Virus record (IMG/VR): IMGVR_UViG_3300027776_000009 | Length of the DNA: 64,000 nt | Strand: one strand, 5' to 3' | Origin: a virus | Taxonomy: Duplodnaviria > Caudoviricetes | Part shown: positions 7,152-49,682 of the stretch, one piece after another | Layout of the letters: each line of letters begins with the position of its first letter | Position numbering within the stretch: the first letter of the stretch is position 1 | Translations under genes and position numbers: made by a program | The notes under the pieces: model-generated | Databases searched by the model: none | What the model was told of the DNA's origin: nothing | What the model saw: the letters and a program-made list of their open reading frames with translations, nothing else

Positions 7152-7184
7152 GTTATCTCTCCTATGAGGTGTATAGTCAACTAG

Positions 7185-7198
7185 GTGATATGTATCTG
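7185..7198 (-). promoter_or_regulatory. Putative phage early promoter motif CAGATACATATCAC
   Basis: Identical 14-mer at 26292-26305 and 49683-49696, 2-nt variant at 49200-49213; all intergenic and upstream of - strand genes. Confidence 0.7.
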
Positions 7199-7205
7199 GA
7201 TACGT

Positions 7206-7643
7206 TTACGTTAAGGGTCCGTAAATGTACGCCTTCACTGCGGTCTTATCAAACCGTTCACGAATTAATGCACGCACATCAGCCCAATTAAGTTCCCCAC
7301 ATCCACATCCCAACATGGGTATGGCAATAGTGGGAATATTCTCAGCCTCGCACGCTTTGATGGTAGCGTCTAAACCCGCTGCAATCCACTCAAGTTTTGA
7401 GGGATCACGCCAGTGCCGTTTCGTAGGTAGCGAAATGAAGACTGTCGATTTATCAAGCCAGTACAGCGACACTGAACCAACCTCCAGAAAATCGCAACTG
7501 GCTTTGTAATCTTCTTCCCATCCCGGTACCAAATCAGCAGCCTGTTTTGCCAACCCTTTTCCCGGAACCCCGACAGTGTTAACAGGGATTACAATTCCGG
7601 CTGCCCGTGTCGTAAGGATGTTACCAAAAGCAGGTTCGTACAT
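7206..7643 (-). CDS. Macrodomain protein (DarG/Poa1-like ADP-ribosylhydrolase)
   Basis: VIPVNTVGVPGKGLA, LPTKRHWRDPSKLEWI, IAIPMLGCGCGELNW; start reassigned to ATG 7643. Confidence 0.88.
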   Translation of the reverse strand: MYEPAFGNILTTRAAGIVIPVNTVGVPGKGLAKQAADLVPGWEEDYKASCDFLEVGSVSLYWLDKSTVFISLPTKRHWRDPSKLEWIAAGLDATIKACEAENIPTIAIPMLGCGCGELNWADVRALIRERFDKTAVKAYIYGPLT

Positions 7644-7700
7644 ATTCGTTCTCCAAAAAAGAAAAGGGAGGAACACCTCCCTTGGTTATGCTGCTATGCC

Positions 7701-9041
7701 TTACATCGCCTTCGGAATAGCGTCGATAAACGCATTGAAGTCGTGACGATTTTCAGACAAAGCCTGCGCCAGATCACACCCGGGGATATCTGAGAAAACC
7801 ACATCAGGGATCGACTTGCCAGGCCAGATCCGCGTGATGTAGTCAACAATGGCCTCGTGATGCAGATGCGGGATTTCAACGGTTACGTCCACCCGCCCCC
7901 AACGCAGGCAGGCAGGATCAACCTGATCGATTGTGTTAGTCGTCATGATGACAACCACATCATCCAGAGGAACCACACCATCAATGGCTTGGAGGAATCC
8001 CTGCAAAGAGCCCAGACTGTAACTCTTCAGCAACGACTCAATCGTCGAATCCTTTCCACCGCCTTCATCCTCGAGTGATAATTGACGCTTTGCCGGAATG
8101 ACCAAAGACCCTCCCAACTTTTCAGCTTCCCGGGCATCTTCAGCATCCGTATCACTTTCACGCTTTGCCTTCAGGCGCTGAGCTTCACCTTCCATACCGC
8201 GACGGATACAGAAATCCCCATTGGCGTTGAAATCATCCATGAACAGGATATCGCCAGGCTGAACCGATGAGATCGCCATGAAAAGCTGCTCTTCCGAGAG
8301 TCCGCTGGGGCTGAGGCGATTGATGTTGCTCTTGTAATGCGTTGCCAGCGCCCGTGTCAGAGAAGTCTTCCCGGTCCCAGGAGGTCCGTAAAGCATGATG
8401 ACCAACTTGTACGGGATACCCGTTTGAACATACCACTCACGCGCCGCCTTGAACTCATCAATCGCGCTGATGATCTTGTTCAACACAGCCTTGTCAATGG
8501 CAATGGTGTCCAAGGGTCGCGGCGCGACTTTGGTTTGATTGCTCCAGCCGTCCCCTTTCCAACTGTAGCTGTAGATGCGTTCACCGCGAGACTCCTTCAC
8601 CTGAAACTCTGCCAAGAGATTCAGCAAGGGTTTCTGGTCACGTCCATAGGTGCTGATCATGACCGTGTTCTGGGTCTCATTCGGCATCTTGTGCGTTTCA
8701 CGATTGAACCAGAACAACCGCCCCTTGTGCCAGAAGTAATACTTGCCGTTGGCTGGACCCAACGCGGTGAGTCGGTTCCAGTCCTCATCGCGATAGTAAT
8801 CCAGCACGATGTTCCGGATCTTCTTGGAAGCGGGATGCTTAAAGAACCACTGCATGAACGCGTAGAAGTTCGGTTCGTTTGAATACTGTCCGGTGGACAG
8901 CGTGAGGGTCACAGTGAGTTGGTCAGTGGTGAAGGTGATCAGCTTATCAGGGATGTTGCTGATCATCCCTTTCATGAAGTCCGATACCACATTAACCATA
9001 ACCTCCGACATCATTGTTGTCGGGGTGACTTTGTTACGCAT
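7701..9041 (-). CDS. Bcs1-like AAA+ ATPase
   Basis: PRPLDTI...WYVQTGIPYK...LYGPPGTGKTS (Walker A), MTTN...DPACLRWGRVD (SRH) and a Bcs1_N-like segment YYFWHKGRLFWFNRE. Confidence 0.85.
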   Translation of the reverse strand: MRNKVTPTTMMSEVMVNVVSDFMKGMISNIPDKLITFTTDQLTVTLTLSTGQYSNEPNFYAFMQWFFKHPASKKIRNIVLDYYRDEDWNRLTALGPANGKYYFWHKGRLFWFNRETHKMPNETQNTVMISTYGRDQKPLLNLLAEFQVKESRGERIYSYSWKGDGWSNQTKVAPRPLDTIAIDKAVLNKIISAIDEFKAAREWYVQTGIPYKLVIMLYGPPGTGKTSLTRALATHYKSNINRLSPSGLSEEQLFMAISSVQPGDILFMDDFNANGDFCIRRGMEGEAQRLKAKRESDTDAEDAREAEKLGGSLVIPAKRQLSLEDEGGGKDSTIESLLKSYSLGSLQGFLQAIDGVVPLDDVVVIMTTNTIDQVDPACLRWGRVDVTVEIPHLHHEAIVDYITRIWPGKSIPDVVFSDIPGCDLAQALSENRHDFNAFIDAIPKAM

Positions 9042-9112
9042 ATTCCTCTCCTCGGTGGCATAAAAGTTTAGGTCATCACAGAGGATGTCCTAAACTGTGA
9101 AAAGTAACCAGC

Positions 9113-9481
9113 TTACGCTTCTGGGTATGGAAAGAACTTGTCCTTGAACAGCAAAGCGTTTTCCATGCGTTCTCGATCAGCAATTCGCATCCCTTGTTCA
9201 GCCTTCTCCAGCGCGCGCTGGAGATCCGTATTACGATGGTGCAGATAGTTTGGATGCACAGGTCTGGGTGATGCTACTACGCGATATCCGTACCCCACGA
9301 TCTGGACAGGACTCAGTTCGATAACCCCAAATCGCAGACCGAGTCGCGTCTCTTCATAGCGGACCTTCTGCAAGATCCAATCACCATCGCTTGTATGAAA
9401 GTGTTGCGTTTGGTCCAAATAGCGCGGGATAATCTCTCGCGGACCAAACCAATGCGTTAACAATGCATCAAGCAGTTTCAT
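9113..9481 (-). CDS. Hypothetical protein
   Basis: ATGA overlap with upstream ORF. Confidence 0.6.
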   Translation of the reverse strand: MKLLDALLTHWFGPREIIPRYLDQTQHFHTSDGDWILQKVRYEETRLGLRFGVIELSPVQIVGYGYRVVASPRPVHPNYLHHRNTDLQRALEKAEQGMRIADRERMENALLFKDKFFPYPEA

Positions 9482-9726
9482 CCCAATCTTCCCTCAATCC
9501 CAGTTCGTGACATGAAACCAGCCAAAGCAACAGTGGCGTGACAGAACGCTTTACCCCATACCACGATATCCGCACTATTACGAATACGCGTAGTATCGTT
9601 GAAATCAATGTAATTAGCTACAGCGTAGCGATCCTCGGTTGACACACAAACACGCGATCGAGATTTCCGACTGACATCGAAACTAAAAGCAAAACAGACA
9701 GCCATGGCTTGGTCAACGTTGTTCAA
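9478..9726 (-). CDS. Hypothetical protein
   Basis: 4-nt overlaps with both neighbours. Confidence 0.5.
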   Translation of the reverse strand: MNNVDQAMAVCFAFSFDVSRKSRSRVCVSTEDRYAVANYIDFNDTTRIRNSADIVVWGKAFCHATVALAGFMSRTGIEGRLG

Positions 9727-9968: not shown

Positions 9969-10146
9969 AATAACCTCTCACGCGTTATCCGCCAGTATTA
10001 AAGGGGTTGGCGGTTTACCCCATGACACTATTGTAGTGTATACGTACAATTGCGTTCATTCAGAGTCAGATATGCAAACCGTTGCACATCCAATGTCCAT
10101 GTCCGTATCGATTTCCGGATCATAGTCCATTTGGTAACTGGTGAGT

Positions 10147-11707: not shown

Positions 11708-12343
11708 TTACCGTACCTCGAAGTAGCTAATCTCAATCTCCGACGCCTCTACGGGTTTGCCCAGCGGGACACCGGGAGTATCCGTTACACTGCTGTACCC
11801 ATGTACGTATTCCATTTTGTGCTTGATCACGTCCCAAACAACATCAAGCACAGGCTGGTAATTGAAGATGTCCGGCAGTGCCTCAATCACCTTCTTGATA
11901 AAGTATTCCGTGGTGACAGCCTGCGTGCTTGTGAAGATAACCGTTTCACCATATTCAAACACGTTGGTGATATTGACTTGACCGGACATCTGCGGTACTT
12001 CACTTGCGCGAAGGTGTGCTACTGTCCGCAATCCCATTTTCGGGACAATGGAAATCTCCATCCGGCGAATCACCAACGGGTCACCATAGTTGGAACGGAA
12101 CTCCAAAGGTGACAAGATAGCTACCACTTGGTCTTCGCTGTAAATCAGCCAGCTATCTGCCTCTGCTCGATGCTCAATCGAAGTCTCGTTATCCATCACC
12201 CAGTACCGCGTTCCATCCTGCCGGACGTAGGGTAGATCTTTAGTGGGATTCGCAGCACGGACTCCCTTTGAAAATGCTGTGGAAAGAAGAGGAATAGCTG
12301 CAATTGCCTCTTTCATAACCGAGTCTTTGCTTTTGTTACACAT
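11708..12343 (-). CDS. Hypothetical protein
   Basis: 211-aa ORF with SD inside a hairpin loop. Confidence 0.7.
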   Translation of the reverse strand: MCNKSKDSVMKEAIAAIPLLSTAFSKGVRAANPTKDLPYVRQDGTRYWVMDNETSIEHRAEADSWLIYSEDQVVAILSPLEFRSNYGDPLVIRRMEISIVPKMGLRTVAHLRASEVPQMSGQVNITNVFEYGETVIFTSTQAVTTEYFIKKVIEALPDIFNYQPVLDVVWDVIKHKMEYVHGYSSVTDTPGVPLGKPVEASEIEISYFEVR

Positions 12344-12380
12344 GGTCGTTCTCCTACGAACGTTAATGAATTATTAAGTA

Positions 12381-12420
12381 GCGGCATAAAAGCAAGGGAC
12401 CCCCGAAGGGATCCCTCTTG
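12381..12420 (-). terminator. Intrinsic terminator
   Basis: - strand GGGATCCC-TTCG-GGGGTCCC followed by TTGCTTTTATGCCGC. Confidence 0.8.
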
Positions 12421-12906: not shown

Positions 12907-13590
12907 TTACAGCTCGTTGACCTGTGCCTTAAGATAGTCAGCCGCAATAGCACTCATGTCATAGACTCGCTGAATCCATTCTCCCCAGACACGAACCATA
13001 TCGCTATCGTGTTCCTTCATGAACTCGGGGTCATCCACAACAAAGTGGTCTACATAGACCAGCTCTCCGTTTCGCCGGTACGTAACACACATCCATGGAA
13101 CGGGCATGGTGTAGATGTACGCATCCAGATCTGCCGGTGCTCGCGCTATCATGGATGCATCCGTGTGAAAATGTTCAACGAGGTCTTTGCAGTCATCCTT
13201 CGCATTCGGCACGCGGAATAGACTGACATTCCAGTTCCGATTGGAGATCAGTACGAAATTAGGATGATTGCGGAAATCATCGCAAGTTTCACACTGAGCC
13301 ATCATTTGAACAAAGGTTTCCAGCTCCTCGGTAGCCGCCAGCATGTAGGGTTTATCTGCCGTGATTTCTTCCATCATTTTCAGCGTAGCAGCGCGATTGA
13401 AGTCAAACGGAAGATCGTGGAGGCGGGGGACGTATGACATACCGTCTTTATCCGTGCTGTAATAACAAACTGATGGAATGCCTCGACCAATAGCCATGAA
13501 CATCATGCCACCACCAGCCACTTCACACCAACTGATCCACAGCGGGTTTATACGTGGAACCCGTTTAATTTCCCACTTAGCTAAGCCCAT
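12907..13590 (-). CDS. Hypothetical protein
   Basis: 227-aa ORF; hairpin SD and promoter-like motif upstream. Confidence 0.7.
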   Translation of the reverse strand: MGLAKWEIKRVPRINPLWISWCEVAGGGMMFMAIGRGIPSVCYYSTDKDGMSYVPRLHDLPFDFNRAATLKMMEEITADKPYMLAATEELETFVQMMAQCETCDDFRNHPNFVLISNRNWNVSLFRVPNAKDDCKDLVEHFHTDASMIARAPADLDAYIYTMPVPWMCVTYRRNGELVYVDHFVVDDPEFMKEHDSDMVRVWGEWIQRVYDMSAIAADYLKAQVNEL

Positions 13591-13696
13591 TTTTTTACTC
13601 TCCTTCGAGTGTTAATGTCACTAAAATAGTGTGTACATATTTTTCACTGCGATTAACCTATTTTATAGTCACCTCACTTACACAGGCGTTGCAATC

Positions 13697-14302: not shown

Positions 14303-14307
14303 CTCCC

Positions 14308-14805: not shown

Positions 14806-17007
14806 CTAACGACCCGGGAACCGCCGTGAGAGATTAGTCCCTCGCCAGGGACCGGGGCTCGCACGTGTTTGTATACGAGCCTGCGCCATACGATTACGCG
14901 CTGTCCGCGCATCTTCAAACAGTTTATCCAGCGTCATATAGCCTTGCGACCGTTCTGGGACACGCTCGTAAAGCGCTCTCATCCGGTGTTCCAACTGCTG
15001 AATGCGTATGGGGTCTCGTGTTTCAGAGAGTTCATCCGCGAGTTCTTCCAGTAAGAGTTTCGCCCGTGACTGCTGTTCATCCATGTAAGCATCGTACGGA
15101 GTCACCGCCTTCTTAACCACGCCTACGTCGTCATCAAACTCGCACGATTCCGACAAGGTGTTATCCAATCCATAGAACCGATGATTCTTACTGACGGTTA
15201 GGAACCAAACCCCTAGCAGCCAGGCAATGACTGTATCGTCGTGCAAACCATTCGTGTGATCAATGCGCCCATTCTTTTCAACAAGCGCGGTGATTTCATC
15301 AATGAGGGTTTTATCGCGGCAGTTCTTGGCGCATAGCTTGGCAGCGCGAAGCAGGACGTCCGTGTATAATGAACTTCGACTAAACTTACCCGACCCCGAA
15401 GTAGTAAACCCAAACATAGCCTTTGATAACGTAATGTGTTTAGGATCACGTCGTGAGAGGTTTTGTTGAATGTACCGATAGTCCTTCTCGTGCTCGACCG
15501 AATCATCCACGATTTGGTTGTAGATTCTTCGGAAGGGATCGATTCCGGCGGCAATTAACATCGTGGTAATCATGTCAATGATGGATGGACCCGATGAACG
15601 CCTTTCTGGAATAATGACCATGCGCTCATACTGGATCATTCGGTCTGCTAACCAGCGCGCAAAATCGTACAGATTAGTTTCGTTGACATTGGCGACCGCT
15701 AAAATCTCTACAGTGCGTGGATCCAAAAACACCAACGAAATACCATCCCGACCAACGGCATCGCTAGTATCAATGCCTACCACCGCGCCACGATCCGCTA
15801 ATAGTCCCGCTATTTCGTGTTCCTGAACATACCAACGAATGTTGTACCCTTCCGGGAAGTATTGGGTAAATACCGGTTCTGCTTCAGAATCCCGAATGGC
15901 TTTATTCAGCGAAGCTGAAAGCGGAGAACGCAAACTCCCCGATGTCCAAACGTTGAAGATATCGCGATCAGCCGCCTCCCCCGTCAGATCGTTTTCACGC
16001 ATGACGTTGTATGCCCACTCGTCAGTATACCCTAGCTGACGATGCGATAGTGTAATGTTGACCAACGGTTTGGTCCCCATACTACCACGTTCAACACGAC
16101 GGTGGAGCTGTGCTTCGTCTTCGGAATCCAGTAAGGATTCATTCCACGGGATCCCCCCATGAATCAGATTGAACGCGTACTTACCCTCACGGGAATCCAG
16201 CTTACCAGCCGTGGTCATAAAGACTGACCCATAAGGCATCCCCGCTGCTTTAGCTTCAGCGCGAGCCGCAGTACCCGCAGTGAGCATAGCAGGGATGGAA
16301 ATGTCTACATAGCTGACAAAAGCCACTTCGTCAATCTTACTCAACGGAGCTGTCAGTCCACGACCCACCTTCAGTGCTCCCGCTGGACTGTTCTGAGCCA
16401 CCTTGTAATTAATCCGGTTATTCCATTGCGTACATGCAATTTCGACGGTGTTATCCGGATCTTTCTTTGAGAAGGCTTGTAGATAATCAGGTAACAAAAT
16501 CCGCATCGTCTTAACACGTTCAACGTTTTCACTACGAAGCTCACTATCCTTGGTCAAGACGTTAATCAGCGCGTTACGTGCTCCGATAGTGACCAAATAA
16601 ACATCCAACATATCCGCCCCCGCCGACTTACCTGTCTGACGAGGTTGCACATTAGCGGGTGATACGTGAGCAAAGAAACACCAGTAGAAAGCAATGTTAC
16701 CACGATTCGCTCGAAAGGGTTTCCCATCCATAGACCCTTGAGGCGGGATACGCGCTACTTCTCGAAACCAGTACCACGGATTTCGGAAACATTCCATGGA
16801 GATCTTACTGCGTTGTTCCATGGATAGGTATGGACTGTGTGGGTCCACACCTTGTAATTCTGGTTGGTGCAGTGCAAGCAAAAACTTGTAGTTCTTAACC
16901 CCCATTTTGCGGTACTTCGCCGCAAGGTCAACAAATGTTCTGTTCTTGGTGTTATAATCAGGAATAGCAGTAGGATAGAGCTGCCAGTCTTTTTCAAAGA
17001 GGATCAT
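14806..17007 (-). CDS. terL: Terminase large subunit (phiKZ gp25-like)
   Basis: Walker A QPRQTGKS, Walker B KIDE, coupling motif TTAG, nuclease GIDTS and HDD; AGGAG SD before ATG 17007. Confidence 0.93.
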   Translation of the reverse strand: MILFEKDWQLYPTAIPDYNTKNRTFVDLAAKYRKMGVKNYKFLLALHQPELQGVDPHSPYLSMEQRSKISMECFRNPWYWFREVARIPPQGSMDGKPFRANRGNIAFYWCFFAHVSPANVQPRQTGKSAGADMLDVYLVTIGARNALINVLTKDSELRSENVERVKTMRILLPDYLQAFSKKDPDNTVEIACTQWNNRINYKVAQNSPAGALKVGRGLTAPLSKIDEVAFVSYVDISIPAMLTAGTAARAEAKAAGMPYGSVFMTTAGKLDSREGKYAFNLIHGGIPWNESLLDSEDEAQLHRRVERGSMGTKPLVNITLSHRQLGYTDEWAYNVMRENDLTGEAADRDIFNVWTSGSLRSPLSASLNKAIRDSEAEPVFTQYFPEGYNIRWYVQEHEIAGLLADRGAVVGIDTSDAVGRDGISLVFLDPRTVEILAVANVNETNLYDFARWLADRMIQYERMVIIPERRSSGPSIIDMITTMLIAAGIDPFRRIYNQIVDDSVEHEKDYRYIQQNLSRRDPKHITLSKAMFGFTTSGSGKFSRSSLYTDVLLRAAKLCAKNCRDKTLIDEITALVEKNGRIDHTNGLHDDTVIAWLLGVWFLTVSKNHRFYGLDNTLSESCEFDDDVGVVKKAVTPYDAYMDEQQSRAKLLLEELADELSETRDPIRIQQLEHRMRALYERVPERSQGYMTLDKLFEDARTARNRMAQARIQTRASPGPWRGTNLSRRFPGR

Positions 17008-17061
17008 AAGCGTTCTCCTAATAGAGCAGATGTGGTGGTGTACCACCACATCTGCCATAGG

Positions 17062-25893: not shown

Positions 25894-26232
25894 TTACTCC
25901 TCATCCAGCCGGGCAAACAGCCGGCTGGATTTCGCGTCAATCCCGCCAAGGTACAGAAGCCCACAGGCTTCCTCCGGCTGGATACGCTCAATCAATCCAT
26001 TAAGATGACAGGCGGGGAAAACGCCTTTGGTGAAGTAAACACCGTTGAGCGGAATGTCGATGTCACCGTGAGCGATCTCAGCGGGGTGTCGCGTGACCAC
26101 CACGTCGCCGTCCTCCAGACGGATCGCATGGCCGAGGACCTTACCATTGCGGATAGCAACGGAGTCTAGGTCAGTGAAGCAGATAGGCTGATACCGCCCA
26201 TCGCGAGTATTGCCAGCATGGATAATTGCCAT
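25894..26232 (-). CDS. Hypothetical protein (presumptive early gene, monocistronic)
   Basis: Own promoter motif (26292), hairpin SD and terminator. Confidence 0.75.
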   Translation of the reverse strand: MAIIHAGNTRDGRYQPICFTDLDSVAIRNGKVLGHAIRLEDGDVVVTRHPAEIAHGDIDIPLNGVYFTKGVFPACHLNGLIERIQPEEACGLLYLGGIDAKSSRLFARLDEE

Positions 26233-26291
26233 TTTCTTTGCCCTCCTTCGGGCGTGGTTAGTGTGAGAGATATTCTCACTTCTCTACCTAA

Positions 26292-26305
26292 GTGATATGT
26301 ATCTG
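26292..26305 (-). promoter_or_regulatory. Putative early promoter CAGATACATATCAC
   Basis: Repeated motif preceded by a T-run on the - strand. Confidence 0.7.
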
Positions 26306-27589: not shown

Positions 27590-28930
27590 TTACTGCGCCA
27601 GTGGTAAGTACGTATCCAACTCTCGGGTAAGAGAAGTAACACCGTTACCCACGGTTGTCACCTTGTTAGTTACCGACTTGATGGTGTTGGTGATACTGTG
27701 GCCGGAAAAGGCAGTCATCAGCAGGACATTACGATCCTTACAGACAGCTTTCAGCCGCTTGTTATCCACGTTCAACGGAAGAATGATCAAGTTAATACGA
27801 CCATTGTATTCCTTGCTAACCCGCTGCGCGGTTTCTGGAACTAAACCGACAATGACAACCTCGGGCAACGTCTTCACGTCAGGCTTCACCTTGGTAGCAA
27901 TCGGCGCTTCAGGCTTGTCATCCTTCGCCGGTTCAACAGAAACCTTAGGAGGTTCCATCTTTTCCAGCTGAAGATCTTCAAGATGCTTGATACGATTCAC
28001 AAGCGATGTGAGCACCATGTCGTATTGAGCATTTTCCTTCTTAGCTGCTTCCACAATTCCCATCATCCGCAACTCTAACCCATTTACCGAGTTACGAAAC
28101 TGTGCAACGGATTTACCAATCTCGGTAATCGTGGAGGGTTTAATCATCTCAACCAGTTTGTCCAGACGAGTTTCAAACTCCCCCATGGAATCCGTGACCA
28201 TCTTGACATCGCGAGTCAGCTCCACTACCTGTTCTTCCACAGTCAGCGGCTTTTCAGGCTCAGCAGGTTTCGGCATAGGAACCGACTTCACCGCTTCCAG
28301 AATGCGGGAATAGAGATGCACCCAAGCCGGAATACGAATCCTCGAAGCTTCTACCACCAGTGATTCTTGAAGATCAAAGTACAACTGGAACAGCACATCG
28401 TCTGACAGCGTATCGTAGTCGTAATTAACCTTCTCGGCAATGGCAACCGTAATAGCGGCATAAGGGTCAGCAGCAACATTACCCGTTTCAGAAGACTCTG
28501 TGGCTTCTTCAGGCTCATACCGGTAATCCCAAAGCAGCGTGCGAATCTTGGGAATGATCTTGAAGAAACCTTCATACTCCCGCATGACAGCTCTCAAGAT
28601 CTCCAGCCGTTGTGTGGGAGTCAACCCCGGCTTTTTGGATAGCAGTGCCTGCCACACCGGCTTCGGCAACATCGCTGATACATCAGGACCAATCCGGTAA
28701 TCGTCATAACCAACGCAGTTATATGCGATGACTAACCCGTCCGTTGTTCCCCGCGCAGTATGCCACCTGTGGAACGAACTATATTCCAGAAAGACCGGAT
28801 CGACTTTCCATCGCTCGTCTCCCTTGGTCATCGTTTCAATCTTCTTCCAGCAGGCATAGGCCGGAACAGCTTTACCCGAGAATGCCGTACGGACGGATCC
28901 GTTGTTGGTAAACACCTGTTTGTTGCTCAT
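27590..28930 (-). CDS. Multidomain protein: degenerate HNH-like N-terminus, coiled coil, DUF2325-like C-terminus
   Basis: AYACWKKI...VDPVFLEYSSFHRW...IGPDVSAMLP; C-terminal VVIVGL...VLLMTAFSGHS...GVTSLTREL. Confidence 0.55.
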   Translation of the reverse strand: MSNKQVFTNNGSVRTAFSGKAVPAYACWKKIETMTKGDERWKVDPVFLEYSSFHRWHTARGTTDGLVIAYNCVGYDDYRIGPDVSAMLPKPVWQALLSKKPGLTPTQRLEILRAVMREYEGFFKIIPKIRTLLWDYRYEPEEATESSETGNVAADPYAAITVAIAEKVNYDYDTLSDDVLFQLYFDLQESLVVEASRIRIPAWVHLYSRILEAVKSVPMPKPAEPEKPLTVEEQVVELTRDVKMVTDSMGEFETRLDKLVEMIKPSTITEIGKSVAQFRNSVNGLELRMMGIVEAAKKENAQYDMVLTSLVNRIKHLEDLQLEKMEPPKVSVEPAKDDKPEAPIATKVKPDVKTLPEVVIVGLVPETAQRVSKEYNGRINLIILPLNVDNKRLKAVCKDRNVLLMTAFSGHSITNTIKSVTNKVTTVGNGVTSLTRELDTYLPLAQ

Positions 28931-28963
28931 GAACGTTTCTCCACGTCGTTGATATTCACATCA

Positions 28964-29451: not shown

Positions 29452-29494
29452 ACTGGGCTCCTAGTGCGAGTGGGACAGGTACATAAAATGGCGC

Positions 29495-31146: not shown

Positions 31147-31941
31147 TTATCCCACCGCGTTGTGAGACTCGGTCTCAGCAGCTCCACCGTTCAGGTTACA
31201 CCCCACCGGGTCAGTCAGAATTTCATCAGAGGAACGCGACTCGCCGGTCCATGGGTTATACCGCCACACACCCAGTGGGTTTACAGTTCGTACAGATTCC
31301 GCGGTGCGTTTATCCGTATCAAACCGCACTCCCGTGTACGGACTAAAGATAAGCGGATTCTCGACGGGGTCCAGCGAAGTGATGCTCACACGGTCACGAT
31401 AGATACGTTCACCAGAGGACGTATCCCCAGAGAATCCCTTATCCTGATTGTCGTATCCAGCGACAGACACACCATGTTCCGAGATAGACAGCGTAAACGA
31501 TTTCTGATCAATCAGGAAATCACAGAAGTCGGAATCGATATCGTCTTCCGAACAAGATTTCATGATGGAGGCCATCACCAGATCATTGTAGTTAGCTGAG
31601 ACCCCATCCGGTCGCCGGAGTCGATTACCCGCCATCGTATCTCGCATGGTGCGCTCAATGGCGGCCAGCGTGTCGATATAGACATGATCGGGTAGGATAA
31701 ACGTCGCGGTGATGGATTTGTGAGCAGTGAGCGTCACGAACAAGTTGCTACCATGATTGGTATCGCCGGTACTATCGCGCGAAATCGTAATCGTGGTGAT
31801 CGATGGCAGCATCTGTGACAGAGACTCGCGGAAACCTGGCAGCATCTCGATATTGCCATCCAGCTCGAAAGAGCACAAGCAAATCAAGTTCTTAAAATCA
31901 CCGCGTTTTAAAAGCGCTTGCAGCAAGGTCAGCTTATTCAT
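31147..31941 (-). CDS. Hypothetical protein with a C-terminal 'YNPWTG' module
   Basis: Shares VWRYNPWTG..R....I..DP.G with 30242..30754. Confidence 0.7.
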   Translation of the reverse strand: MNKLTLLQALLKRGDFKNLICLCSFELDGNIEMLPGFRESLSQMLPSITTITISRDSTGDTNHGSNLFVTLTAHKSITATFILPDHVYIDTLAAIERTMRDTMAGNRLRRPDGVSANYNDLVMASIMKSCSEDDIDSDFCDFLIDQKSFTLSISEHGVSVAGYDNQDKGFSGDTSSGERIYRDRVSITSLDPVENPLIFSPYTGVRFDTDKRTAESVRTVNPLGVWRYNPWTGESRSSDEILTDPVGCNLNGGAAETESHNAVG

Positions 31942-32371
31942 GAGGTTTCTCCACCTTCACAATTGACAACGTAGGTTTGGTTCTTACTACAGGGGGCGCA
32001 ATTTCTTGCACCGCTGGTTGTTCAAACTCGTCCGTGAATGTGCCGCTAAAATGCGTGTCTTCGATTTTCACGAAAACAATGCTATCCCGAATGTCTTCCT
32101 TCGGGAAAATGGAGCAGATAGCACTCAAAGGCACCGAAATGAAACGCGATACTCGGTTGAAACGCGCGCTAAATCGTAATCCATCATCTCCTAATTCATA
32201 GTTGTGAACGGACCGCGGCGATATGTTCAGGGTAATGAAGCCATTCTGGACATATTCATCCGGAACTATGACATCCGGATGACCCGCGTCAACAACCACG
32301 TATGGCGTCTGACCCCCTTCGCTGATATACCGGATTACGGCATCGATGATAAACGCACGTTTCGTTTTCAT
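31934..32371 (-). CDS. sspB: ClpXP adaptor SspB homologue
   Basis: TPYVVVDA...V.VP.EYV.NG.I.LNISPRSV...FSARF...VPLSAI.SIF.KE; tail KPTLSIVK resembles the ClpX-binding RPALRVVK. Confidence 0.92.
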   Translation of the reverse strand: MKTKRAFIIDAVIRYISEGGQTPYVVVDAGHPDVIVPDEYVQNGFITLNISPRSVHNYELGDDGLRFSARFNRVSRFISVPLSAICSIFPKEDIRDSIVFVKIEDTHFSGTFTDEFEQPAVQEIAPPVVRTKPTLSIVKVEKPHE

Positions 32372-33527: not shown

Positions 33528-34307
33528 TTACCATTTGGCGGATGGGGGGAGATAGATGCGTGACGCCGGAGCAGTCGTCTTTTCACGGAACAGTCGCACT
33601 GCCTCATAGAGACGATCACGATCATCGCTTTCCATCCCGACACCGAACCGACCGCTGCGTACTTGCTCAGCAGCCGTCATCAGGGTATTGAGATCGAAAC
33701 TGTGACCATCAATGGACTCCAGACTCGGGGAGTTGTACTTGTGCGCCAGCGCAATACCGGGCTCGTTGACATAGTCCCACGTTACCAGCATCCGTACTGT
33801 CTTGATCATCCCACCCTGTGGTCCGGGTACATCGTTGGTCAGTGTACGCACCGAGAACGACGCATTCTGGTTAGGGTCTTTCAGACTTTCTTCCAGATAA
33901 GTTCCAAACGGACCCGAGGGTTTCACCAACCCTGTAACGACGACTTCGCGTTCTCCGTTCATAGCCACACGGTCTTGTTCATTCAACTGAATCCGGTTGA
34001 AGTAACAGCAGACTTGGGTTTCACGGATTTCCATAACCCGGCGAATGAAATCATTCTCCGTGCGAACGCTATCGCGCTTAGGGTGCCCGTATTCGCCCCG
34101 CAATGCGTTGGCGGCAATGCGTCGTTGAAACGGGGATGAGCTTTCAAACATATCTTTAACCGGACCCAGTGGGTAGAAGTCCTTGTGGTTGTTGGCGTAA
34201 TTGAACGCTCCCAACACCAATTCGTACCGCCCATCTGCATCCGGTTTCAGAATGCCTTTTTTACCTGAGTTTCTCAGGATGTTACTTTCATACGTGATAA
34301 CTGTCAT
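33528..34307 (-). CDS. Prohead maturation protease (phiKZ gp175-like)
   Basis: LRGEYGHP (His), ASFSVRTLT (Ser), TWDYVNEPGI; SLE|S candidate autocleavage site; synteny with vRNAP genes. Confidence 0.88.
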   Translation of the reverse strand: MTVITYESNILRNSGKKGILKPDADGRYELVLGAFNYANNHKDFYPLGPVKDMFESSSPFQRRIAANALRGEYGHPKRDSVRTENDFIRRVMEIRETQVCCYFNRIQLNEQDRVAMNGEREVVVTGLVKPSGPFGTYLEESLKDPNQNASFSVRTLTNDVPGPQGGMIKTVRMLVTWDYVNEPGIALAHKYNSPSLESIDGHSFDLNTLMTAAEQVRSGRFGVGMESDDRDRLYEAVRLFREKTTAPASRIYLPPSAKW

Positions 34308-36545: not shown

Positions 36546-36749
36546 TTATTGACGCGGCAAAGCCGCCAGTTTGGTATTCACCGTGTTCGCCACCAGATCC
36601 ATGAGGAAATCAGAATCAGGACCCACCACGCTCTCTCCGCGAATCGTAGGGGACAGTGCGTCGCCTACCAATTCCCGCACCACACCGCACGCTACTTCGG
36701 TCAGGTTCCCCAAAGTCACGTACGATCCAATCACCTTATCGGTATTCAT
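36546..36749 (-). CDS. Small conserved protein
   Basis: GAGGA SD; fills the gap in the operon. Confidence 0.6.
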   Translation of the reverse strand: MNTDKVIGSYVTLGNLTEVACGVVRELVGDALSPTIRGESVVGPDSDFLMDLVANTVNTKLAALPRQ

Positions 36750-36805
36750 GCTGAATCCTCAGTAGTGTTAAAAATAGTGAGGGAGTTACCTCCCTCACTG
36801 TTGAG

Positions 36806-39800
36806 TCATCCTCGGTAGGCGGCAATCATTCGCTTACCGATCTCCACGGCCAGCGTGGAGGTGGTTCCAATGAGATCCCCGGAGTTCACAATCCGTTTAT
36901 CGAACGAACGATAACTGAACTTAGCATCCAGAGAAACCCCTTCATCTGTTTCCAGAACACCGGTAAAGACTTCCCCTACCGTCCCTTTCATCTGATTAGC
37001 AAAGACAAACTTATCAGCGACCCCCATGGGGTTAGGTCCAGTAATGTAAATCTTAATAACGGCTTGTTTATCATCAATGGGTTTCCCACTGACTCGCGTA
37101 CCGCGTTCAAGATTAGCTTCACCGACAGCTCGACGGAGTTCTTTATTGGTTCGGCGCATCTTGGTGTCCGATTGTTCAGCCAGTGTTTTCAGACTGGGTG
37201 ACATATCTTCGGTATCGCCGCAATAGACGACCTCAATGCGTTCCACCTTGCCAGGGTATTTGGCCTTGGGGGAGGTTTGTGATAATGACATCAGTGTGCT
37301 GAGTGCTTCATCACTGAAAATATCGGAATTACCGCCACTCGCGTGGTGGATAGTACATAAAATACTTTCAGTAGTGAGTGTTTCTCCGACTTTGACCAGA
37401 TTACGAACCTCTTTATCAAAATCGACCGAGACCTCACGGACACGAGTGATGGTGGTAGCCATCTTCTCCGCAAAGGATTCACTCAGTGCGCACGAATCTT
37501 CGAAGACCGCCTGGACCTCACAGAAGACCGTATAGGCCAATACACCGAACTTCAGCAAGACATTCTTGGGGTTCATGATGTCGGGTGTGTAATACATGCT
37601 GTTGTATAGCAGGATATCACTCTTCTTAAACTCATCCCCGACTTTGAACACCGTATCAAGCTGATGGGGCACGTCTTCACCATCCCACTTTCCGTACTGT
37701 CGCCCCATGGGAAAGCTATCCACCGCACCCGATGCATACTGGATCACCATCACGTCGTTCTGGATCGAGACGATCTTCCCGTCTTCTTTCGCAGCTTGTG
37801 AAAACAAGCGAGAGCTCCGCTGTGCGATTACGCGCTCGTAACCCGTACGTGTAGGCAGAGGAGTGTAACCAACGGCGTGAGTGGTGGCAGAGTTCTGGAT
37901 ATTACAGAAGTTCCCCCGAGTAGGCGAATCACGATCAACTGCTGGTGCTAGCATCACACTCGTACTTAGCATCTTAGCCGGATCCTTAACCGGGTCTTTG
38001 ACGCGCCGAGTCGTGCCACGCAGACTGTTGAAATTGGGATCTGCTGTCAGATAGGTGATAGTAGCCACTTCCCCGGAATCCACTGTAGCCTCAGAGATGA
38101 CCCCCATGGCGTTCTTGTGATACTTCCGCGAAGGTGCAGTCATGGAGCGGCTTGACCGACCCCCATGTCCTGAGTACACCACGACTTCTTGTTCCTTGAG
38201 CGCGTGAATAGGATTGGCATCCTTTACCGGCATCTTGGTTTCATCTTCACTGATCGCTGACCACACGGCGTATGGGTGCATGTCCACCATGGCGTTAGCC
38301 GTACTGGCCTTCATGCTGTAATCCGTCAGTGATCGCATGAGCTGATCGTAAAGTATCCCAGCAAACCGTTCATAGCCCTTGATTCGCATATGTTCCATGT
38401 CCATGGGGTCTGGACACGTATTGAGCGTAAGTTTCTTGGTCGCTGAAATGAAGAGTTCGAACAGTGTTAAGGGTTCATCCATTTCCACCAGCAACCCCCG
38501 GGTAATAGGATCCACCCAGAGGTTGAACATCAGGTCGATCTTACGGAGATGTCGTGCACGGATGTCCACATCGTTCAGGATGTTGGCGTAGACTTCGGGC
38601 TTGTCGAAATGATAGATGCTGTATCGCTTGATCTCGTTGTGGTACCGATTGAATCCTTGCATCAACAACGTCGCTACCGCATCACGTCGATCCAGAATGA
38701 GTTTCTCATCCTGAAACCGCACTACGTACTCCGTAGGACCCAAGGTCTCTCGCTCACCCACCAGGACCCGACGATGTCTTGCCTTAAGGGTTTTCAGCAA
38801 GTTTCCAAGACCTGCCTGCATGGCCAAGAGAATCCCCACAGGAATGTCTTTACCAAAGACGCCAACCTCCACGTAGTCCGTGGGACGTTTTTCCGAAGGG
38901 AGACCCAGAAAGGTATCCAGTTGCCCCATAGCACGTTTCTCATCCAGATTTCCCAGATGCGAAATGTGATAGAGTTCATTGTCAAAGTCCATGACAAGAA
39001 CCCCTTCGGTTCCTTTGGCGACCGGAATCAGTTCCCCCTTGCTTGCGAGTAATACATCCTTGACAACCTGGGCACCGAAGAAATCTTGACCGGCTTTGTA
39101 GTCAAAGTTAAAGGTGTATCCAGCCACTACAAATGACCGAATGCGTTGGGCGATGGCAGCATACGCCGGAGGAACAGCGTGATCCTTCGTGAAGCAGTTG
39201 GCAAACTTGATGTCAGACAGCGCGCCCTCCTGGTTCCCAATTCGGCTGATCTTAATGATCTGGTTACACAGCCACTGATCGTAACTAAACGCCACTCGTT
39301 CCGTTTTGCGAACAAACATCTTGCTGAAGTAACTTGTCAGAGAGACTTCGTCTGGCGCAGTTTTACGAATAGGGGAATCTCCGCGTTGCTTACGCAAACG
39401 GTATATTGTCCCCCCAGCCAGATAGGTTCCATCAGGCTTCACAATCGGTAGTCGGAAGCTAATGGTGTTCGGTTTACCAATCGCTGGGACCAATCGCACG
39501 GTGTGGATTTCGTAGGAATCCTGCATCGTATCAACGCGTCGGATATTGTAATCCTGCACGGCTATCCCAGCTCTTTGAACCGACATGACCGTCGAGACAA
39601 TGTCTTTCGGAAGAATGTTCTCGATATAGCGTTCATCGAAATGCTGAAGAGAGCAGGATCGCATGGAGTTATCCAACACTCCCGTCACTGGACCAATCAT
39701 CTCCGCGGTCTCCGGAACCTGGAGTTCCTCGGGTTTGATCTCCAGAAGATCCGTCAGTTTACCATCCCCGTAAGGGTTAGGTAGGGACTTATACCGTTGG

Positions 39801-41035
39801 CTAATAGCCACCAACCGTCCGTGCTCACCGGCTGAAAGTAATCCCTTCTTTACCAAAGACATCGCTTTGGTTTCCACTGCGTTGTCTATAGTGACTTCTT
39901 TAGCCACGTATCCCTGATAGACTCCTTCTTCTTCTTCAGGAGCAGCTTCTTCATCGGGAATAGCGTCCAGATCCTTATCGACCTGCTGAAGGACTTCCGC
40001 AGTATCCTGCGAGTCTTCCCCCAACAACTGGGAGGTGTCTTCTTTGTCGACTTCATTTTCAGGTAGCTTATCGGCTGCCTTCATGACTTCGTCTAGGGTT
40101 TTCGCAGGGGATGGATTACTGTCTTTATCTGCGGCAGGTGCTGCTTCCGTCACCGAAGCATCTTCAGTGACCACCGTAACGGATTCTTGCAATGACATAT
40201 TCATCCGAAGATAGAGCCGTTGCAGTTGTTCAGGCGTAGCCACTCCCTGTTTATTATCCGGCGTCTTTCGCATGCGCTCCAACAAACCCAGATTCAGCGT
40301 AGCCCACTTACCACCCACCAGCCACACCAAGTTCATGTATTCAACGGCTTCGCTCGGAATACGTGCCAGCGTAGACTGCGAGCGTTCTTCTCCCAACCAC
40401 TGCCACATGTCCGATAGGAAATAACTGCTTTCACCATGCAGGTTTTGGATCACGTTATTCTTACTGTGATCCTTAACCATGTTCAGTTGAGCAATACTGG
40501 GGAGTCGAACTGGAAGATCGACGCGTATGAATTGCTGCCGCCCGGTGTCTTTGGCGATCTCAGCAGCCTTGATCCAGACCATAGACATGGCATTCGCCCA
40601 ACGATCATACTGCATAATAGCCGCATGTCCCATGGGAAGATATCGGTAATGCTTCGCCAAGGGTGCGTAATTCACCACGTACAGCATCCGCTGGTTTCTC
40701 ACGGCTTGCGCATTACTCGCCAAACGCTTAAAGTTCTTGTAGCGCCGATGGAACTCTTGAACGTAGCTGGCATCATTGAACGTCCGAGAATGCGGCTCCC
40801 CACGGAGTCCCTGGATAGGCATATCCACAATGTGATCCACGACGATGTTGTTAGCGTAGCCATTCAGCAACTGATCGTCCGGACTAACCCCATCATCCTC
40901 TTCATCGGTAGTGACGTAGTGATACGCCGAATTGACTGGCAACCGCAGGGTTTCCAGATCGCTCAAGGGCGGTCTCAGCAACTGCGACACGTTCCGCATC
41001 CCGTGCTGGCGATAGAAAATCGCATACGTTTGCAT
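36806..41035 (-). CDS. Virion RNA polymerase beta subunit, N-terminal piece (phiKZ gp178-like)
   Basis: KQRGD.PIRK, GHGGRS.RSM, G.ISEATVDSG, TGYE..IA, FEDS...S, ADKF.FANQMKGT. Confidence 0.9.
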   Translation of the reverse strand: MQTYAIFYRQHGMRNVSQLLRPPLSDLETLRLPVNSAYHYVTTDEEDDGVSPDDQLLNGYANNIVVDHIVDMPIQGLRGEPHSRTFNDASYVQEFHRRYKNFKRLASNAQAVRNQRMLYVVNYAPLAKHYRYLPMGHAAIMQYDRWANAMSMVWIKAAEIAKDTGRQQFIRVDLPVRLPSIAQLNMVKDHSKNNVIQNLHGESSYFLSDMWQWLGEERSQSTLARIPSEAVEYMNLVWLVGGKWATLNLGLLERMRKTPDNKQGVATPEQLQRLYLRMNMSLQESVTVVTEDASVTEAAPAADKDSNPSPAKTLDEVMKAADKLPENEVDKEDTSQLLGEDSQDTAEVLQQVDKDLDAIPDEEAAPEEEEGVYQGYVAKEVTIDNAVETKAMSLVKKGLLSAGEHGRLVAISQRYKSLPNPYGDGKLTDLLEIKPEELQVPETAEMIGPVTGVLDNSMRSCSLQHFDERYIENILPKDIVSTVMSVQRAGIAVQDYNIRRVDTMQDSYEIHTVRLVPAIGKPNTISFRLPIVKPDGTYLAGGTIYRLRKQRGDSPIRKTAPDEVSLTSYFSKMFVRKTERVAFSYDQWLCNQIIKISRIGNQEGALSDIKFANCFTKDHAVPPAYAAIAQRIRSFVVAGYTFNFDYKAGQDFFGAQVVKDVLLASKGELIPVAKGTEGVLVMDFDNELYHISHLGNLDEKRAMGQLDTFLGLPSEKRPTDYVEVGVFGKDIPVGILLAMQAGLGNLLKTLKARHRRVLVGERETLGPTEYVVRFQDEKLILDRRDAVATLLMQGFNRYHNEIKRYSIYHFDKPEVYANILNDVDIRARHLRKIDLMFNLWVDPITRGLLVEMDEPLTLFELFISATKKLTLNTCPDPMDMEHMRIKGYERFAGILYDQLMRSLTDYSMKASTANAMVDMHPYAVWSAISEDETKMPVKDANPIHALKEQEVVVYSGHGGRSSRSMTAPSRKYHKNAMGVISEATVDSGEVATITYLTADPNFNSLRGTTRRVKDPVKDPAKMLSTSVMLAPAVDRDSPTRGNFCNIQNSATTHAVGYTPLPTRTGYERVIAQRSSRLFSQAAKEDGKIVSIQNDVMVIQYASGAVDSFPMGRQYGKWDGEDVPHQLDTVFKVGDEFKKSDILLYNSMYYTPDIMNPKNVLLKFGVLAYTVFCEVQAVFEDSCALSESFAEKMATTITRVREVSVDFDKEVRNLVKVGETLTTESILCTIHHASGGNSDIFSDEALSTLMSLSQTSPKAKYPGKVERIEVVYCGDTEDMSPSLKTLAEQSDTKMRRTNKELRRAVGEANLERGTRVSGKPIDDKQAVIKIYITGPNPMGVADKFVFANQMKGTVGEVFTGVLETDEGVSLDAKFSYRSFDKRIVNSGDLIGTTSTLAVEIGKRMIAAYRG

Positions 41036-41036: not shown

Positions 41037-42671
41037 TCAATCTCCCGTGTAATTCATAACGACCCGCCGGACGGATTCAATCGAAGGACTAGCCAAGAGA
41101 CCCCCTCGTGGATTAACATAGGAACTCGCCTTGTTAAGCAGTCGTTGGACTTCTTCTACAGCTTCGTCCGTGTAAAGCGCATTCCCCGACATGGTGTCAC
41201 CGTCGTGGTCACCCCCTGCCAATGCAAGACGCGACGGGTGTACTGACATAGCGTCATAGAACACCGGCTCGTCCATATTGGGGTATTCCAACGCGGTGTA
41301 CTCAGCATCCATTGGAATCCAGTTGTCATCCAATTCCCGTCTGGCTACGGCGCCCTCGGTGGTCTTGACGTAAGCATAGGAGTCGTAAATACTCCCCAGT
41401 CCCGTAATGGGGTAACGGGTTGGGACCAGTGGGATTTTAGTCCACTCCCGATACCCAGAGATATAAAGCAACTCTGTCAAGGTTAAGGGATGCACGTACT
41501 TCTTGTCAAACTTCGGATTCCCGACAGGTAATTCCGTGATGTCATTGAAGATCTTAAACGTGTTATCAGGACCTCGATACACCAATCCCAAGTAATACCC
41601 CCGATCCACCACAATGGGTTTGACACGGTTCTGGAAGGAGAAATAGCTATTCAGCACACCTTCCAATCCCGGAGTCGATGTCCACTTATCAATGGCTGAC
41701 GATGAAACACGAATGATTTCACGTCGCAAGGTTTTGGGGTTCACCAGCGCTACATTACCATCCTGACTGAAGACTCGACCGATCCAGCCATTTTGCAGCA
41801 TGTGAATGGTTTTTGGGAGCACAGACTTTGCCAACTGAAAGAGACCAATGAAGGTAGTATTCAATCCAGCGCCACGGCGTCCACCCAATATAGGCTTAGC
41901 AATCGGCATAGCCGTGATAACGTTCCGCGTTCCGTTATAGATCCGCCGACAGCCCCACTTCCCTAAGAAGAACCCACCCTTCCCACTCACGAGGGCATTG
42001 AAGTACTCGTAGATTTCCAGAAAGGTTTGTTGCATGGCGTAGCGCGTGTTGTTTTGCAGACGGTTATCCGTACTACTCACCACCGACAATGCGTTATTCG
42101 CCGCGAGGATGTTACGATAGGGGCCGTTAATATCGCCCTGCTTGGTTCTTCCGGATTCGTCCACCGATACATCCCGAAGACCCGCCGGAAGAATAAGCAG
42201 TTTGTCCAACAGCGCTCGTTCACGCCCCTTGACAATGAACTCGATTCGTAATCCACGAACATCCGAGTCATTGGTTTTGAACTGGATCTTATCCCAATAG
42301 TCCATGAAGAAGGTGAAGCCGGTGTCACCGTCGACTTGATCCGAAGGAACAAAGTCTTCCAGAGTTTCATCCCACGCCGCGTATTCCCGTCCTGAGAAGA
42401 TGCCGGCGTAAAGCTGCTTCAGACGGCAGAGTTGCTTGTAGTAAAACGGATGTAACAACGTGGTCTTCAAGTCGATATAGGAAAAACGTCGATCTCGTTC
42501 ATCGCTCCCAGGGCGACCAAAGGTCAGTACGGAGAACAACCCGTCTTCGTGAAAGGTTGAGGTGCTACCTCCTTCGAACATATCCAACGATCTTGTCGGC
42601 CGCAGATATTGCAGACGCTCCGGCGTCAGTTTGAGCAGTGCCACATTGGCAGGAATACTGGTACGTTGCAT
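41037..42671 (-). CDS. Virion RNA polymerase beta' subunit carrying the catalytic DxDGD (phiKZ gp180-like)
   Basis: FHEDGLFS, ILPAGLRD, GKGGF, RRIYNGTRNVIT, TRYPITG, GGDHDGD. Confidence 0.9.
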   Translation of the reverse strand: MQRTSIPANVALLKLTPERLQYLRPTRSLDMFEGGSTSTFHEDGLFSVLTFGRPGSDERDRRFSYIDLKTTLLHPFYYKQLCRLKQLYAGIFSGREYAAWDETLEDFVPSDQVDGDTGFTFFMDYWDKIQFKTNDSDVRGLRIEFIVKGRERALLDKLLILPAGLRDVSVDESGRTKQGDINGPYRNILAANNALSVVSSTDNRLQNNTRYAMQQTFLEIYEYFNALVSGKGGFFLGKWGCRRIYNGTRNVITAMPIAKPILGGRRGAGLNTTFIGLFQLAKSVLPKTIHMLQNGWIGRVFSQDGNVALVNPKTLRREIIRVSSSAIDKWTSTPGLEGVLNSYFSFQNRVKPIVVDRGYYLGLVYRGPDNTFKIFNDITELPVGNPKFDKKYVHPLTLTELLYISGYREWTKIPLVPTRYPITGLGSIYDSYAYVKTTEGAVARRELDDNWIPMDAEYTALEYPNMDEPVFYDAMSVHPSRLALAGGDHDGDTMSGNALYTDEAVEEVQRLLNKASSYVNPRGGLLASPSIESVRRVVMNYTGD

Positions 42672-48760: not shown

Positions 48761-48860
48761 CGGCATAAGCACTCTCCCTCCTAGGGAAACCTAGGAGGGA
48801 GTTATGCTGTTGGGTTTAGGACAAAAAAGAAGGGTGTTAACTCACCCTTCTTTTTTGTCC
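48761..48860. terminator. Paired terminators between convergent units
   Basis: CGGCATA...CTCCCTCCTAGG-GAAA-CCTAGGAGGGAG-TTATGCTG; GGACAAAAAAAGAAGGGTG/CACCCTTCTTTTTTGTCC. Confidence 0.8.
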
Positions 48861-49052
48861 TCAATTGAGGACAATGTGCACACCGTGGGACAGAACCCAC
48901 ACGGTGAGGACACTGGCCGCCGCACAGGCGACCATGAAAAGAGCGGCGCGGAAGCGCCCTTGATCCGGCTTAATTAATTGATCCATCAGCCATACAAGAA
49001 CCGGCCCGCACATAATAGCAAGGCCCATAACAACTGGAAATGAATTTGGCAC
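48861..49052 (-). CDS. Small two-TM membrane protein (presumptive early gene)
   Basis: Two hydrophobic helices; GTG start with AGGAGG SD in a hairpin. Confidence 0.65.
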   Translation of the reverse strand: MPNSFPVVMGLAIMCGPVLVWLMDQLIKPDQGRFRAALFMVACAAASVLTVWVLSHGVHIVLN

Positions 49053-49199
49053 GATAAGTCCTCCTACGGACTGTGGGGTATAAGGGGTGCAAGTATCTCG
49101 TTCGCGTGATTGGCTCTCAGTCGTTAGCTGAGTAACTGGTCACAGACCCTCTGTCGTTAGCAGATGAGTCCTAGCGATTGATAACACTTTGTCCTTATT

Positions 49200-49213
49200 G
49201 TAGTATGTATCTG
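49200..49213 (-). promoter_or_regulatory. Putative early promoter CAGATACATACTAC
   Basis: Variant of the repeated 14-mer. Confidence 0.65.
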
Positions 49214-49264
49214 AAAAAAAGTGGATTCAGGCAAAAAGAAAAGGGAGCCCGAAGGCTCCCGTGA

Positions 49265-49624
49265 TTAGTCGAGACCAAGATGCTTCTTGATCTCGGTAAA
49301 CCGCTTGCGCATCCATCGTGGGGCAGTCCCTTTAAGGACCTGTTCCATGACAATCGGCAGGGGAAAGTAGTGGACGTTTGGTGCGGCTCCTGTCCGCACT
49401 AAAGCGTAATAGGAGTGCATGAAACGTGTGGGTGGGGTTTCAGATTCAATAGCTTGTTTAATCTCCTCAAGACACACGTCATGAGGATCCCCATAATGCA
49501 GTGTAGCAGTACTCAGGTCGTCCTCGTACTGAGGAGCACCCGCTGCAAACAGGGGTCCGCTGCCGGAGTGGGTGACGGTGAAGGCGGTTTCACCTTCGGT
49601 ATACGTAGTTGTGAAAGTTGTCAT
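49265..49624 (-). CDS. Hypothetical protein (presumptive early gene, monocistronic)
   Basis: Promoter motif 49683, hairpin SD, terminator GGGAGCC-CGAA-GGCTCCC at about 49243-49260. Confidence 0.75.
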   Translation of the reverse strand: MTTFTTTYTEGETAFTVTHSGSGPLFAAGAPQYEDDLSTATLHYGDPHDVCLEEIKQAIESETPPTRFMHSYYALVRTGAAPNVHYFPLPIVMEQVLKGTAPRWMRKRFTEIKKHLGLD

Positions 49625-49682
49625 AGCGATGTCCTCCTACGGACTTGGTTTAGGCGTCGGATGATTCCGACTCTCTACTTAA

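Follow-up and report, generated by a model that had tools for sequence, protein, structure and literature searches.

A covarying hairpin at the Shine-Dalgarno sequence of first cistrons behind early-type promoters in a phiKZ-like jumbo phage

Introduction

Among published elements, the start-associated sequence (SAS) of Cluster K mycobacteriophages comes closest to the one described here; it is an AGGAG-containing repeat, GGG-ATAGGAG-CCC, with symmetric outer bases (Pope et al. 2011, PMC3203893). SAS lies 3-7 bp 5' of the start codon in some non-structural genes and in none of the structural genes, and a role in translation initiation was proposed by its authors (PMC3203893). Our element is a short hairpin with the Shine-Dalgarno (SD) sequence in its loop. 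It was found in a stretch of virus DNA of 64,000 nucleotides (IMG/VR record IMGVR_UViG_3300027776_000009; this whole stretch is called the window). As with SAS, an AGGAG-containing repeat is placed a few nucleotides before the starts of non-structural genes only. However, SAS is a fixed 13-bp sequence, GGGATAGGAGCCC, with no reported stem covariation, whereas the present stems are free in sequence and covary. The present element further differs from SAS by its 6-nt loop, by the SD's G in the closing pair, by its restriction to 5' leaders behind putative early promoters and by its occurrence in a phiKZ-like jumbo phage, with hosts that are probably Gram-negative.

Targets of the CsrA/RsmA proteins carry GGA in hairpin loops that overlap the SD, and the consensus GGA occupies positions 3-5 of a hexaloop. 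Small hairpins at the ribosome site also serve as the coat-protein operators of MS2 and Qbeta. The present element resembles CsrA/RsmA targets in having GGA in a short, SD-overlapping hexaloop that is closed by C-G. In contrast to these targets, GGA lies at loop positions 4-6, shifted by one, position 1 is a G, and there is usually one GGA per leader; only the leader type of the 119-amino acid (aa) gene has a second GGA, inside a stem. One hairpin, GCCC-GAAGGA-GGGC, may resemble lambda boxB.

The single-gene operator of T4 gp43 (PMC3014915) is likewise a small ribosome-site hairpin with a conserved loop. This operator and those of MS2 and Qbeta belong to one gene each and have a known protein, whereas the present element is multi-copy. 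With the sites of T4 RegB the element shares GGAG in the SDs of early mRNAs, the class being assigned here by a promoter motif. According to PMC3014915, the optimum for RegB alone is an unpaired GGA with a constrained fourth G, and the predicted hairpin has this geometry. In contrast, natural T4 RegB sites are mostly unstructured, are followed by A-rich sequence and are S1-dependent, and the phage family is unrelated. The PeSL modules of T4-type phages (PMC2839356) similarly combine a repeated early promoter, a stem-loop and an SD next to exchangeable ORFans. Their stem-loop forms a terminator located in or next to a sigma70 promoter, whereas the present hairpin lies at the SD, behind a promoter of the phage RNA polymerase (RNAP) type. 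To our knowledge, translation control is almost unexplored in phiKZ-like jumbo phages; their transcription programme is well studied.

Hairpins at Shine-Dalgarno sequences

An earlier note, made from the letters of this DNA, had listed six hairpins just before start codons on the minus strand. All six were recovered exactly.

49631-49644, minus strand: SD hairpin GUCC-GUAGGA-GGAC, 5' of the 119-aa gene (49265-49624), free energy (dG) -4.8 kcal/mol
49057-49072, minus strand: SD hairpin AGUCC-GUAGGA-GGACU, 5' of the 63-aa gene (48861-49052), dG -6.4 kcal/mol
26240-26253, minus strand: SD hairpin GCCC-GAAGGA-GGGC, 5' of the 112-aa gene (25894-26232), dG -6.9 kcal/mol
13597-13610, minus strand: SD hairpin ACUC-GAAGGA-GAGU, 5' of the 227-aa gene (12907-13590)
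12347-12362, minus strand: SD hairpin CGUUC-GUAGGA-GAACG, 5' of the 211-aa gene (11708-12343)
7157-7168, minus strand: weak 3-bp member CUC-AUAGGA-GAG, 5' of the 144-aa gene (6717-7151)

At all six sites the loop has 6 nt, ends in AGGA and is closed by C-G. The architecture consists of 4-5 Watson-Crick pairs of free sequence around a near-invariant hexaloop, G-W-A-G-G-A. The closing pair is invariably C-G, the G of which also serves as base 5 of the SD, AGGAG. From the end of AGGA to the start codon there are 8-11 nt at the six sites, and the open reading frames (ORFs) have 63-227 codons. The spacer between hairpin and start codon has 1-7 nt (58% A, 6% G), and the leader just 5' of the hairpin is A/C-rich and G-poor (47% A, 34% C and 5% G in its last 10 nt). 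Isolated 4-5 bp hairpins have a dG of -3.1 to -6.9 kcal/mol, and the closing-pair probability was at least 0.58 in 10 of 15 predicted leaders. Loop position 1 is a G in 6/7 hairpin SDs vs 0/16 other AGGA SDs (p = 7e-5). Therefore this G is a feature of the hairpin and not of the SD. The weak member at 7157 has a low predicted occupancy in context and scores 18.3 bits in the covariance model R1.

The earlier note had described the genes as unrelated and the stems as different. The hairpins at 49057 and 49631 nevertheless share 15 nt, although the two genes behind them are not paralogues. Window genes are named below by their length in aa (w63, w112, w119, w227, w446), and B63 and D112 are the counterparts in the related phages B and D.

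A variant was found at a further gene.

28932-28947, minus strand: variant SD hexaloop hairpin (G)ACGU-GGAGAA-ACGU(U), 5' of the 446-aa gene (27590-28930)

In contig L014 this variant reads AACGU-GGAGAA-ACGUU, with an A-U as fifth pair there vs G.U in the window. Another possible variant, CUG-AGGAUU-CAG at 36751-36762 on the minus strand, 5' of a 67-aa gene (36546-36749), was unsupported by the in-context fold and was rejected.

Further members lie beyond the window, in L019, which is the same genome as the window and adds 10 kb, and in L020, a strain with 98% identity overall and 86% in the 49-kb region.

L019, 21969: SD hairpin
L020, 1359: SD hairpin
L020, 16781: SD hairpin

A possible operon-internal member, CACGUU-GUAGGA-GGCGUG with two G.U pairs, was seen in L010 (16350-16372). 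A 66-aa gene follows it directly, and the end of the preceding gene overlaps it.

Enrichment and covariation

The window has 66 predicted genes, for which the longest start was retained where start refinement moved it by more than 25 codons. Both strands were scanned for an NNAGGA hexaloop with a Watson-Crick stem of at least 3 bp, and 10 matches were found among 406 AGGA. Stems of at least 4 bp numbered 6 vs ~1.6 expected, and 5/6 were at SD positions. An AGGA-type SD was found in 22/66 genes. In the register NNAGGA, 6/22 of these SDs have a stem of at least 3 bp and 5/22 one of at least 4 bp. All other loop registers gave 0-2 stems, except for one that consists of the identical stems minus one pair.

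A comparison with shuffled SD flanks had been proposed in the earlier note, and the observed count was never reached in it. The five 4-bp stems were matched by 0/40,000 permutations of 5' flanks between genes (mean 0.46) and by 0/40,000 shuffles within flanks (mean 0.20). Twenty instances were then aligned in register. Their covariation score was 0.717 vs 0.226 in shuffles, and 0/500 shuffles scored as high. These instances came from a scan that demanded pairing; the comparison of orthologues described below is free of that bias. Scanning of 286 kb with the covariance model separated members (at least 17.6 bits) from everything else (at most 12.9 bits), and zero copies away from an SD were found in these 286 kb.

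Conservation in related phages

About 84 kb of a genome of at least 200 kb was covered. Syntenic contigs of relatives were reached through homologues of the 227-aa and 740-aa proteins, and orthology of the hairpin genes was verified by BLASTP. Phage B consists of contigs L003 and L016, phage C of L004 and phage D of L010 and L014; L017 and L018 are remoter relatives (~55%). The hairpin was kept at 8/8 orthologous sites of the 4-5 bp members in four related phages or strains. The stems at these genes were as follows.

227-aa gene: window ACUC..GAGU; phage B the same; phage C UACUC..GAGUA; phage D GACUC..GAGUC
112-aa gene: window GCCC..GGGC; phage D (L014, 79% aa identity) GUCC-GUAGGA-GGAC
119-aa gene: window GUCC..GGAC; L020 AGCC..GGCU; phage B (L016) GCCC..GGGC
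63-aa gene: window AGUCC..GGACU; L020 UCCC..GGGA; phage B (L016) GUCC..GGAC

Across orthologues, six compensatory changes in pairs 1-4 altered both sides of the stem, and no change was one-sided. L003, L004 and L010 retain the hairpin of the 227-aa gene, at protein identities as low as 42%, with a fifth pair that is U-A in L004 and G-C in L010. At w119 vs L020 and at w112 vs phage D, the hairpin persists where the remaining leader is replaced. The weak 7157 member reads CUC-GUAGGA-GAG in L003. Pairing rather than stem sequence is conserved. The hairpin is a real, selected element at the RNA level that is shared among SD sites.

The whole records of five isolates were also scanned. Xanthomonas phage Xoo-sp14 has one clean SD instance, GUUCC-GUAGGA-GGAAC, and Erwinia phage PhiEaH1 has one looser instance; zero instances were found in the records of pEa_SNUABM_37 and Proteus phage 10. 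Matches of the model in phiKZ were rejected, as they are terminators (CCCUCC-CGAA-GGAGGG) and not SD hairpins. The element is sparse or absent in these five records; a high density, of about one per 10 kb, is therefore confined to the present clade. A metagenome scan with the 227-aa family found nothing. Search with the promoter-plus-loop pattern returned two chance metagenome matches, both stemless and serving as negative controls, and zero in IMG/VR.

Early-type promoters and gene class

On the minus strand of the window, a T-run followed by AGATACATATCAC or ACATACACACTAC is repeated. Early promoters of jumbo phages are described as having a conserved motif, AT-rich and ~10 nt long, with its centre near -10 and 5' of hypothetical genes (PMC7598289; PMC11512511). 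By analogy we infer that the minus-strand motif is an early-type promoter. The earlier note had stated that five of the six hairpin genes come first behind a repeated motif; this holds, with the cores located at 49695, 49212, 26304, 13638 and 7197.

49683-49695, minus strand: early-type promoter core AGATACATATCAC after a T-run, predicted to drive the 119-aa gene
49200-49212, minus strand: early-type promoter core AGATACATACTAC, predicted to drive the long leader of the 63-aa gene
26292-26304, minus strand: early-type promoter core AGATACATATCAC, predicted to drive the 112-aa gene
13626-13638, minus strand: early-type promoter core variant ATGTACACACTAT, predicted to drive the 227-aa gene; conserved in L003, L004 and L010
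7185-7197, minus strand: early-type promoter core AGATACATATCAC, predicted to drive the 144-aa gene

Hairpins of at least 4 bp were found at 6/13 first genes behind the early-type motif vs 1/57 other genes (p = 8e-5), which bears out the suspected class bias. The exception is the 12347 site, which is preceded by a late-type motif, TTTATG (12381-12393). This motif resembles the TATG start motif of late promoters in phiKZ. Zero hairpins were found at downstream cistrons of the early operons. The same holds for the late/structural genes and the plus-strand virion genes, as had been noticed before for a sample of structural genes.

TTTATG is repeated 5' of many non-early genes, often right after a GC hairpin (12381-12393, 29460-29480 and other sites before plus-strand genes).

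Downstream genes and cassettes

The six proteins encoded behind the hairpins matched no family in Pfam or PHROGs and are ORFans. Search of the ESM Atlas with w112 and w227 gave no lead, and AlphaFold models of w227 and w112 were unusable, with predicted local distance difference test (pLDDT) values of 47 and 36. Accessory cassettes are common among the hairpin genes, and several of them are strain-specific. The 63-aa and 119-aa genes and the small 80-aa gene of the L020 type are missing from the ~55% relatives L017 and L018. The presence pattern of the 80-aa, 63-aa and 119-aa genes is one of single-cassette gain and loss.

In L020 the extra 80-aa gene (1113-1355, vs window 49625-49758) lies between the 119-aa and 740-aa genes and carries its own early promoter and a GUCC-GUAGGA-GGAC hairpin.

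Possible functions of the hairpin

We tentatively read the hairpin as a cis-acting structured ribosome site, that is, as belonging to the region where translation of the first cistron is initiated on early transcripts in this phiKZ-like clade. The hairpin would be a standard, context-insulated ribosome site. AGGA would stay unpaired, in a stack on the 3' side of the loop, where the anti-SD of 16S rRNA could use it as a toehold, and the short stem would then be displaced by the anti-SD. In this way, mispairing of the SD with the leader or coding sequence of frequently exchanged early ORFan cassettes would be prevented. The hairpin might give extra protection to the short 5' untranslated region, and a protein may read it as well. 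Limitation of the hairpin to first cistrons would follow because no upstream translating ribosome unfolds them. A cis-acting ribosome site would explain both this restriction and the association with exchangeable cassettes, and it fits the 5'-proximal restriction at least as well as a protein reader does.

Several points weigh against a purely cis-acting site. For SD accessibility an unstructured leader alone would suffice, and loop size and register would be free; yet the loop is strictly 6 nt. The G at loop position 1 suggests a specific reader or a specific loop fold. From thermodynamics, a stem of -3 to -7 kcal/mol that includes SD bases 5-6 is predicted to lower and not to raise initiation. 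The label 'early' is itself inferred by analogy with other jumbo phages (PMC7598289), and the transcription start sites are putative. In addition, canonical members have no G.U pairs, and wobble is confined to the w446 variant and the one L010 candidate; the RNA level is therefore argued from position and not from wobble pairs.

The main rival, less likely in our view, is a shared operator for a trans-acting phage factor, which would be a repressor of translation or else a RegB-like endoribonuclease cutting GG^AG, and by which a set of early first cistrons would be jointly switched off at the early-to-middle transition. Neither the loop, G-W-A-G-G-A, nor its closing C-G varies as the stems do, the G at loop position 1 is specific to hairpin sites, and the element is biased to the early class. 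Phage hairpins that act as translational operators are well known, for example that of T4 gp43 (PMC3014915). The geometry equals the conformation that T4 RegB alone cleaves efficiently, according to PMC3014915, citing Lebars 2001; this is a resemblance only. However, downstream early cistrons would escape such control, as the hairpin is found only at 5'-proximal cistrons, and it is present at only about half of the early promoters. There are also no decoy or non-SD copies in the 286 kb scanned, and the unusable models of the two conserved hairpin-associated proteins offer no help. Pfam scans of 40 window proteins revealed no RegB, no CsrA (PF02599) and no other RNA-binding family, and the small window proteins are not CsrA-like by eye; this negative is weak because ~84 kb of the genome of at least 200 kb is covered. 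Thus, of the translational regulon that the earlier note had put forward, the shared cis element and the early bias stand, and a protein reader has no candidate among these 40 proteins. If the operator reading is true, no translational regulon would have been described before this one in phiKZ-like phages that form a nucleus, and SAS-type elements generally would gain a functional explanation.

It is unlikely that host CsrA/RsmA binds the hairpins and that the host carbon-storage regulator thereby gates early phage translation. GGA does lie in a short C-G-closed hexaloop that overlaps the SD, and the AGGA core fits CsrB-type repeats. Relatives of the phage infect Enterobacterales, Xanthomonas and Pseudomonas, all of which have CsrA/RsmA. 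However, the likeness does not extend to the register, which is off the (A/U)CANGGANG(U/A) consensus with G rather than A at loop position 1, nor to a second site, since 6/7 leaders have no second GGA for dimer bridging. GAAGGA and GUAGGA moreover interchange freely among orthologues.

Very unlikely is a role at the DNA level, in which the inverted repeat would be a recombination or boundary site of a PeSL-like mobile cassette for early ORFan shuffling and the RNA hairpin would be incidental. Identical 14-15-nt hairpins stand before unrelated genes (w63, w119, the L020 80-aa gene, D112 and B63), single-gene cassettes are gained and lost between strains, and the PeSL cassettes of T4-like phages are a precedent (PMC2839356). 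Homologous recombination, however, requires identity and not pairing, whereas the stems diverge by compensatory change with pairing kept. In addition, the hairpin keeps a set position with respect to the start codon, and its loop is the SD itself. Finally, an origin by chance, or through palindromic sequence flanking an AGGAG(G) consensus, is refuted by the permutations (0/40,000), the one-register signal, the covariation score and the compensated conservation across orthologues, even though the 3' arm starts with SD bases, so that the first pair requires only a C 6 nt upstream, and the 3-bp member at 7157 is weak.

Whichever way it acts, the cis-acting ribosome site that we favour or otherwise, this compact element of 14-16 nt is clearly under selection and marks the early class. 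It can be used for annotating early first cistrons in the clade and gives a handle for experiments. The covariation is evidence that pairing matters in an SD-centred repeat; such evidence is missing for the SAS elements published in 2011. A compact ribosome-site module with a sequence-free stem may also interest synthetic biologists.

Other features of the leaders and the window

Two leaders have a first hairpin upstream of the SD hairpin. The two are placed at matching positions and differ in pairing sequence.

49656-49671, minus strand: first leader hairpin GUCGGA-AUCA-UCCGAC, upstream of the 49631 SD hairpin
26263-26279, minus strand: first leader hairpin GUGAGA-AUAUC-UCUCAC

Both sit just 3' of the early promoter and a conserved TTARGTAGAG. 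A 7-bp version occurs in L014, and the first leader hairpin is missing from the L020 and phage D versions of those genes. The long leader of the 63-aa gene contains twin hairpins with a common loop, GCUAACGAC (49114-49168, minus strand). Their stems covary among the window, L020 and L016 (CUCAG..CUGAG vs CUCGG..CCGGG).

The window is part of the genome of an uncultured, divergent phiKZ-like jumbo phage. Identity to the closest isolates in an RNAP subunit is only ~42-43%, relatives in IMG/VR reach only ~43%, and a DNA search of the phage collection with the window gave zero matches. Rfam and tRNA scans over the window gave no match. A tail/lysin protein of 2006 aa is also encoded in the window, as are other virion proteins of the phiKZ type. 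Genes of known type are listed below.

36806-41035 and 41037-42671: split multisubunit RNAP beta/beta' genes
14806-17058: large terminase
21-3614, minus strand: intein-bearing ribonucleotide reductase, large subunit; the intein has a LAGLIDADG endonuclease domain (Pfam)
31934-32371: SspB-like adaptor
7206-7643: Macro domain protein
4237-4755: protein with a domain like the C-terminal domain of RNAP alpha
33528-34307: Peptidase S80 prohead protease

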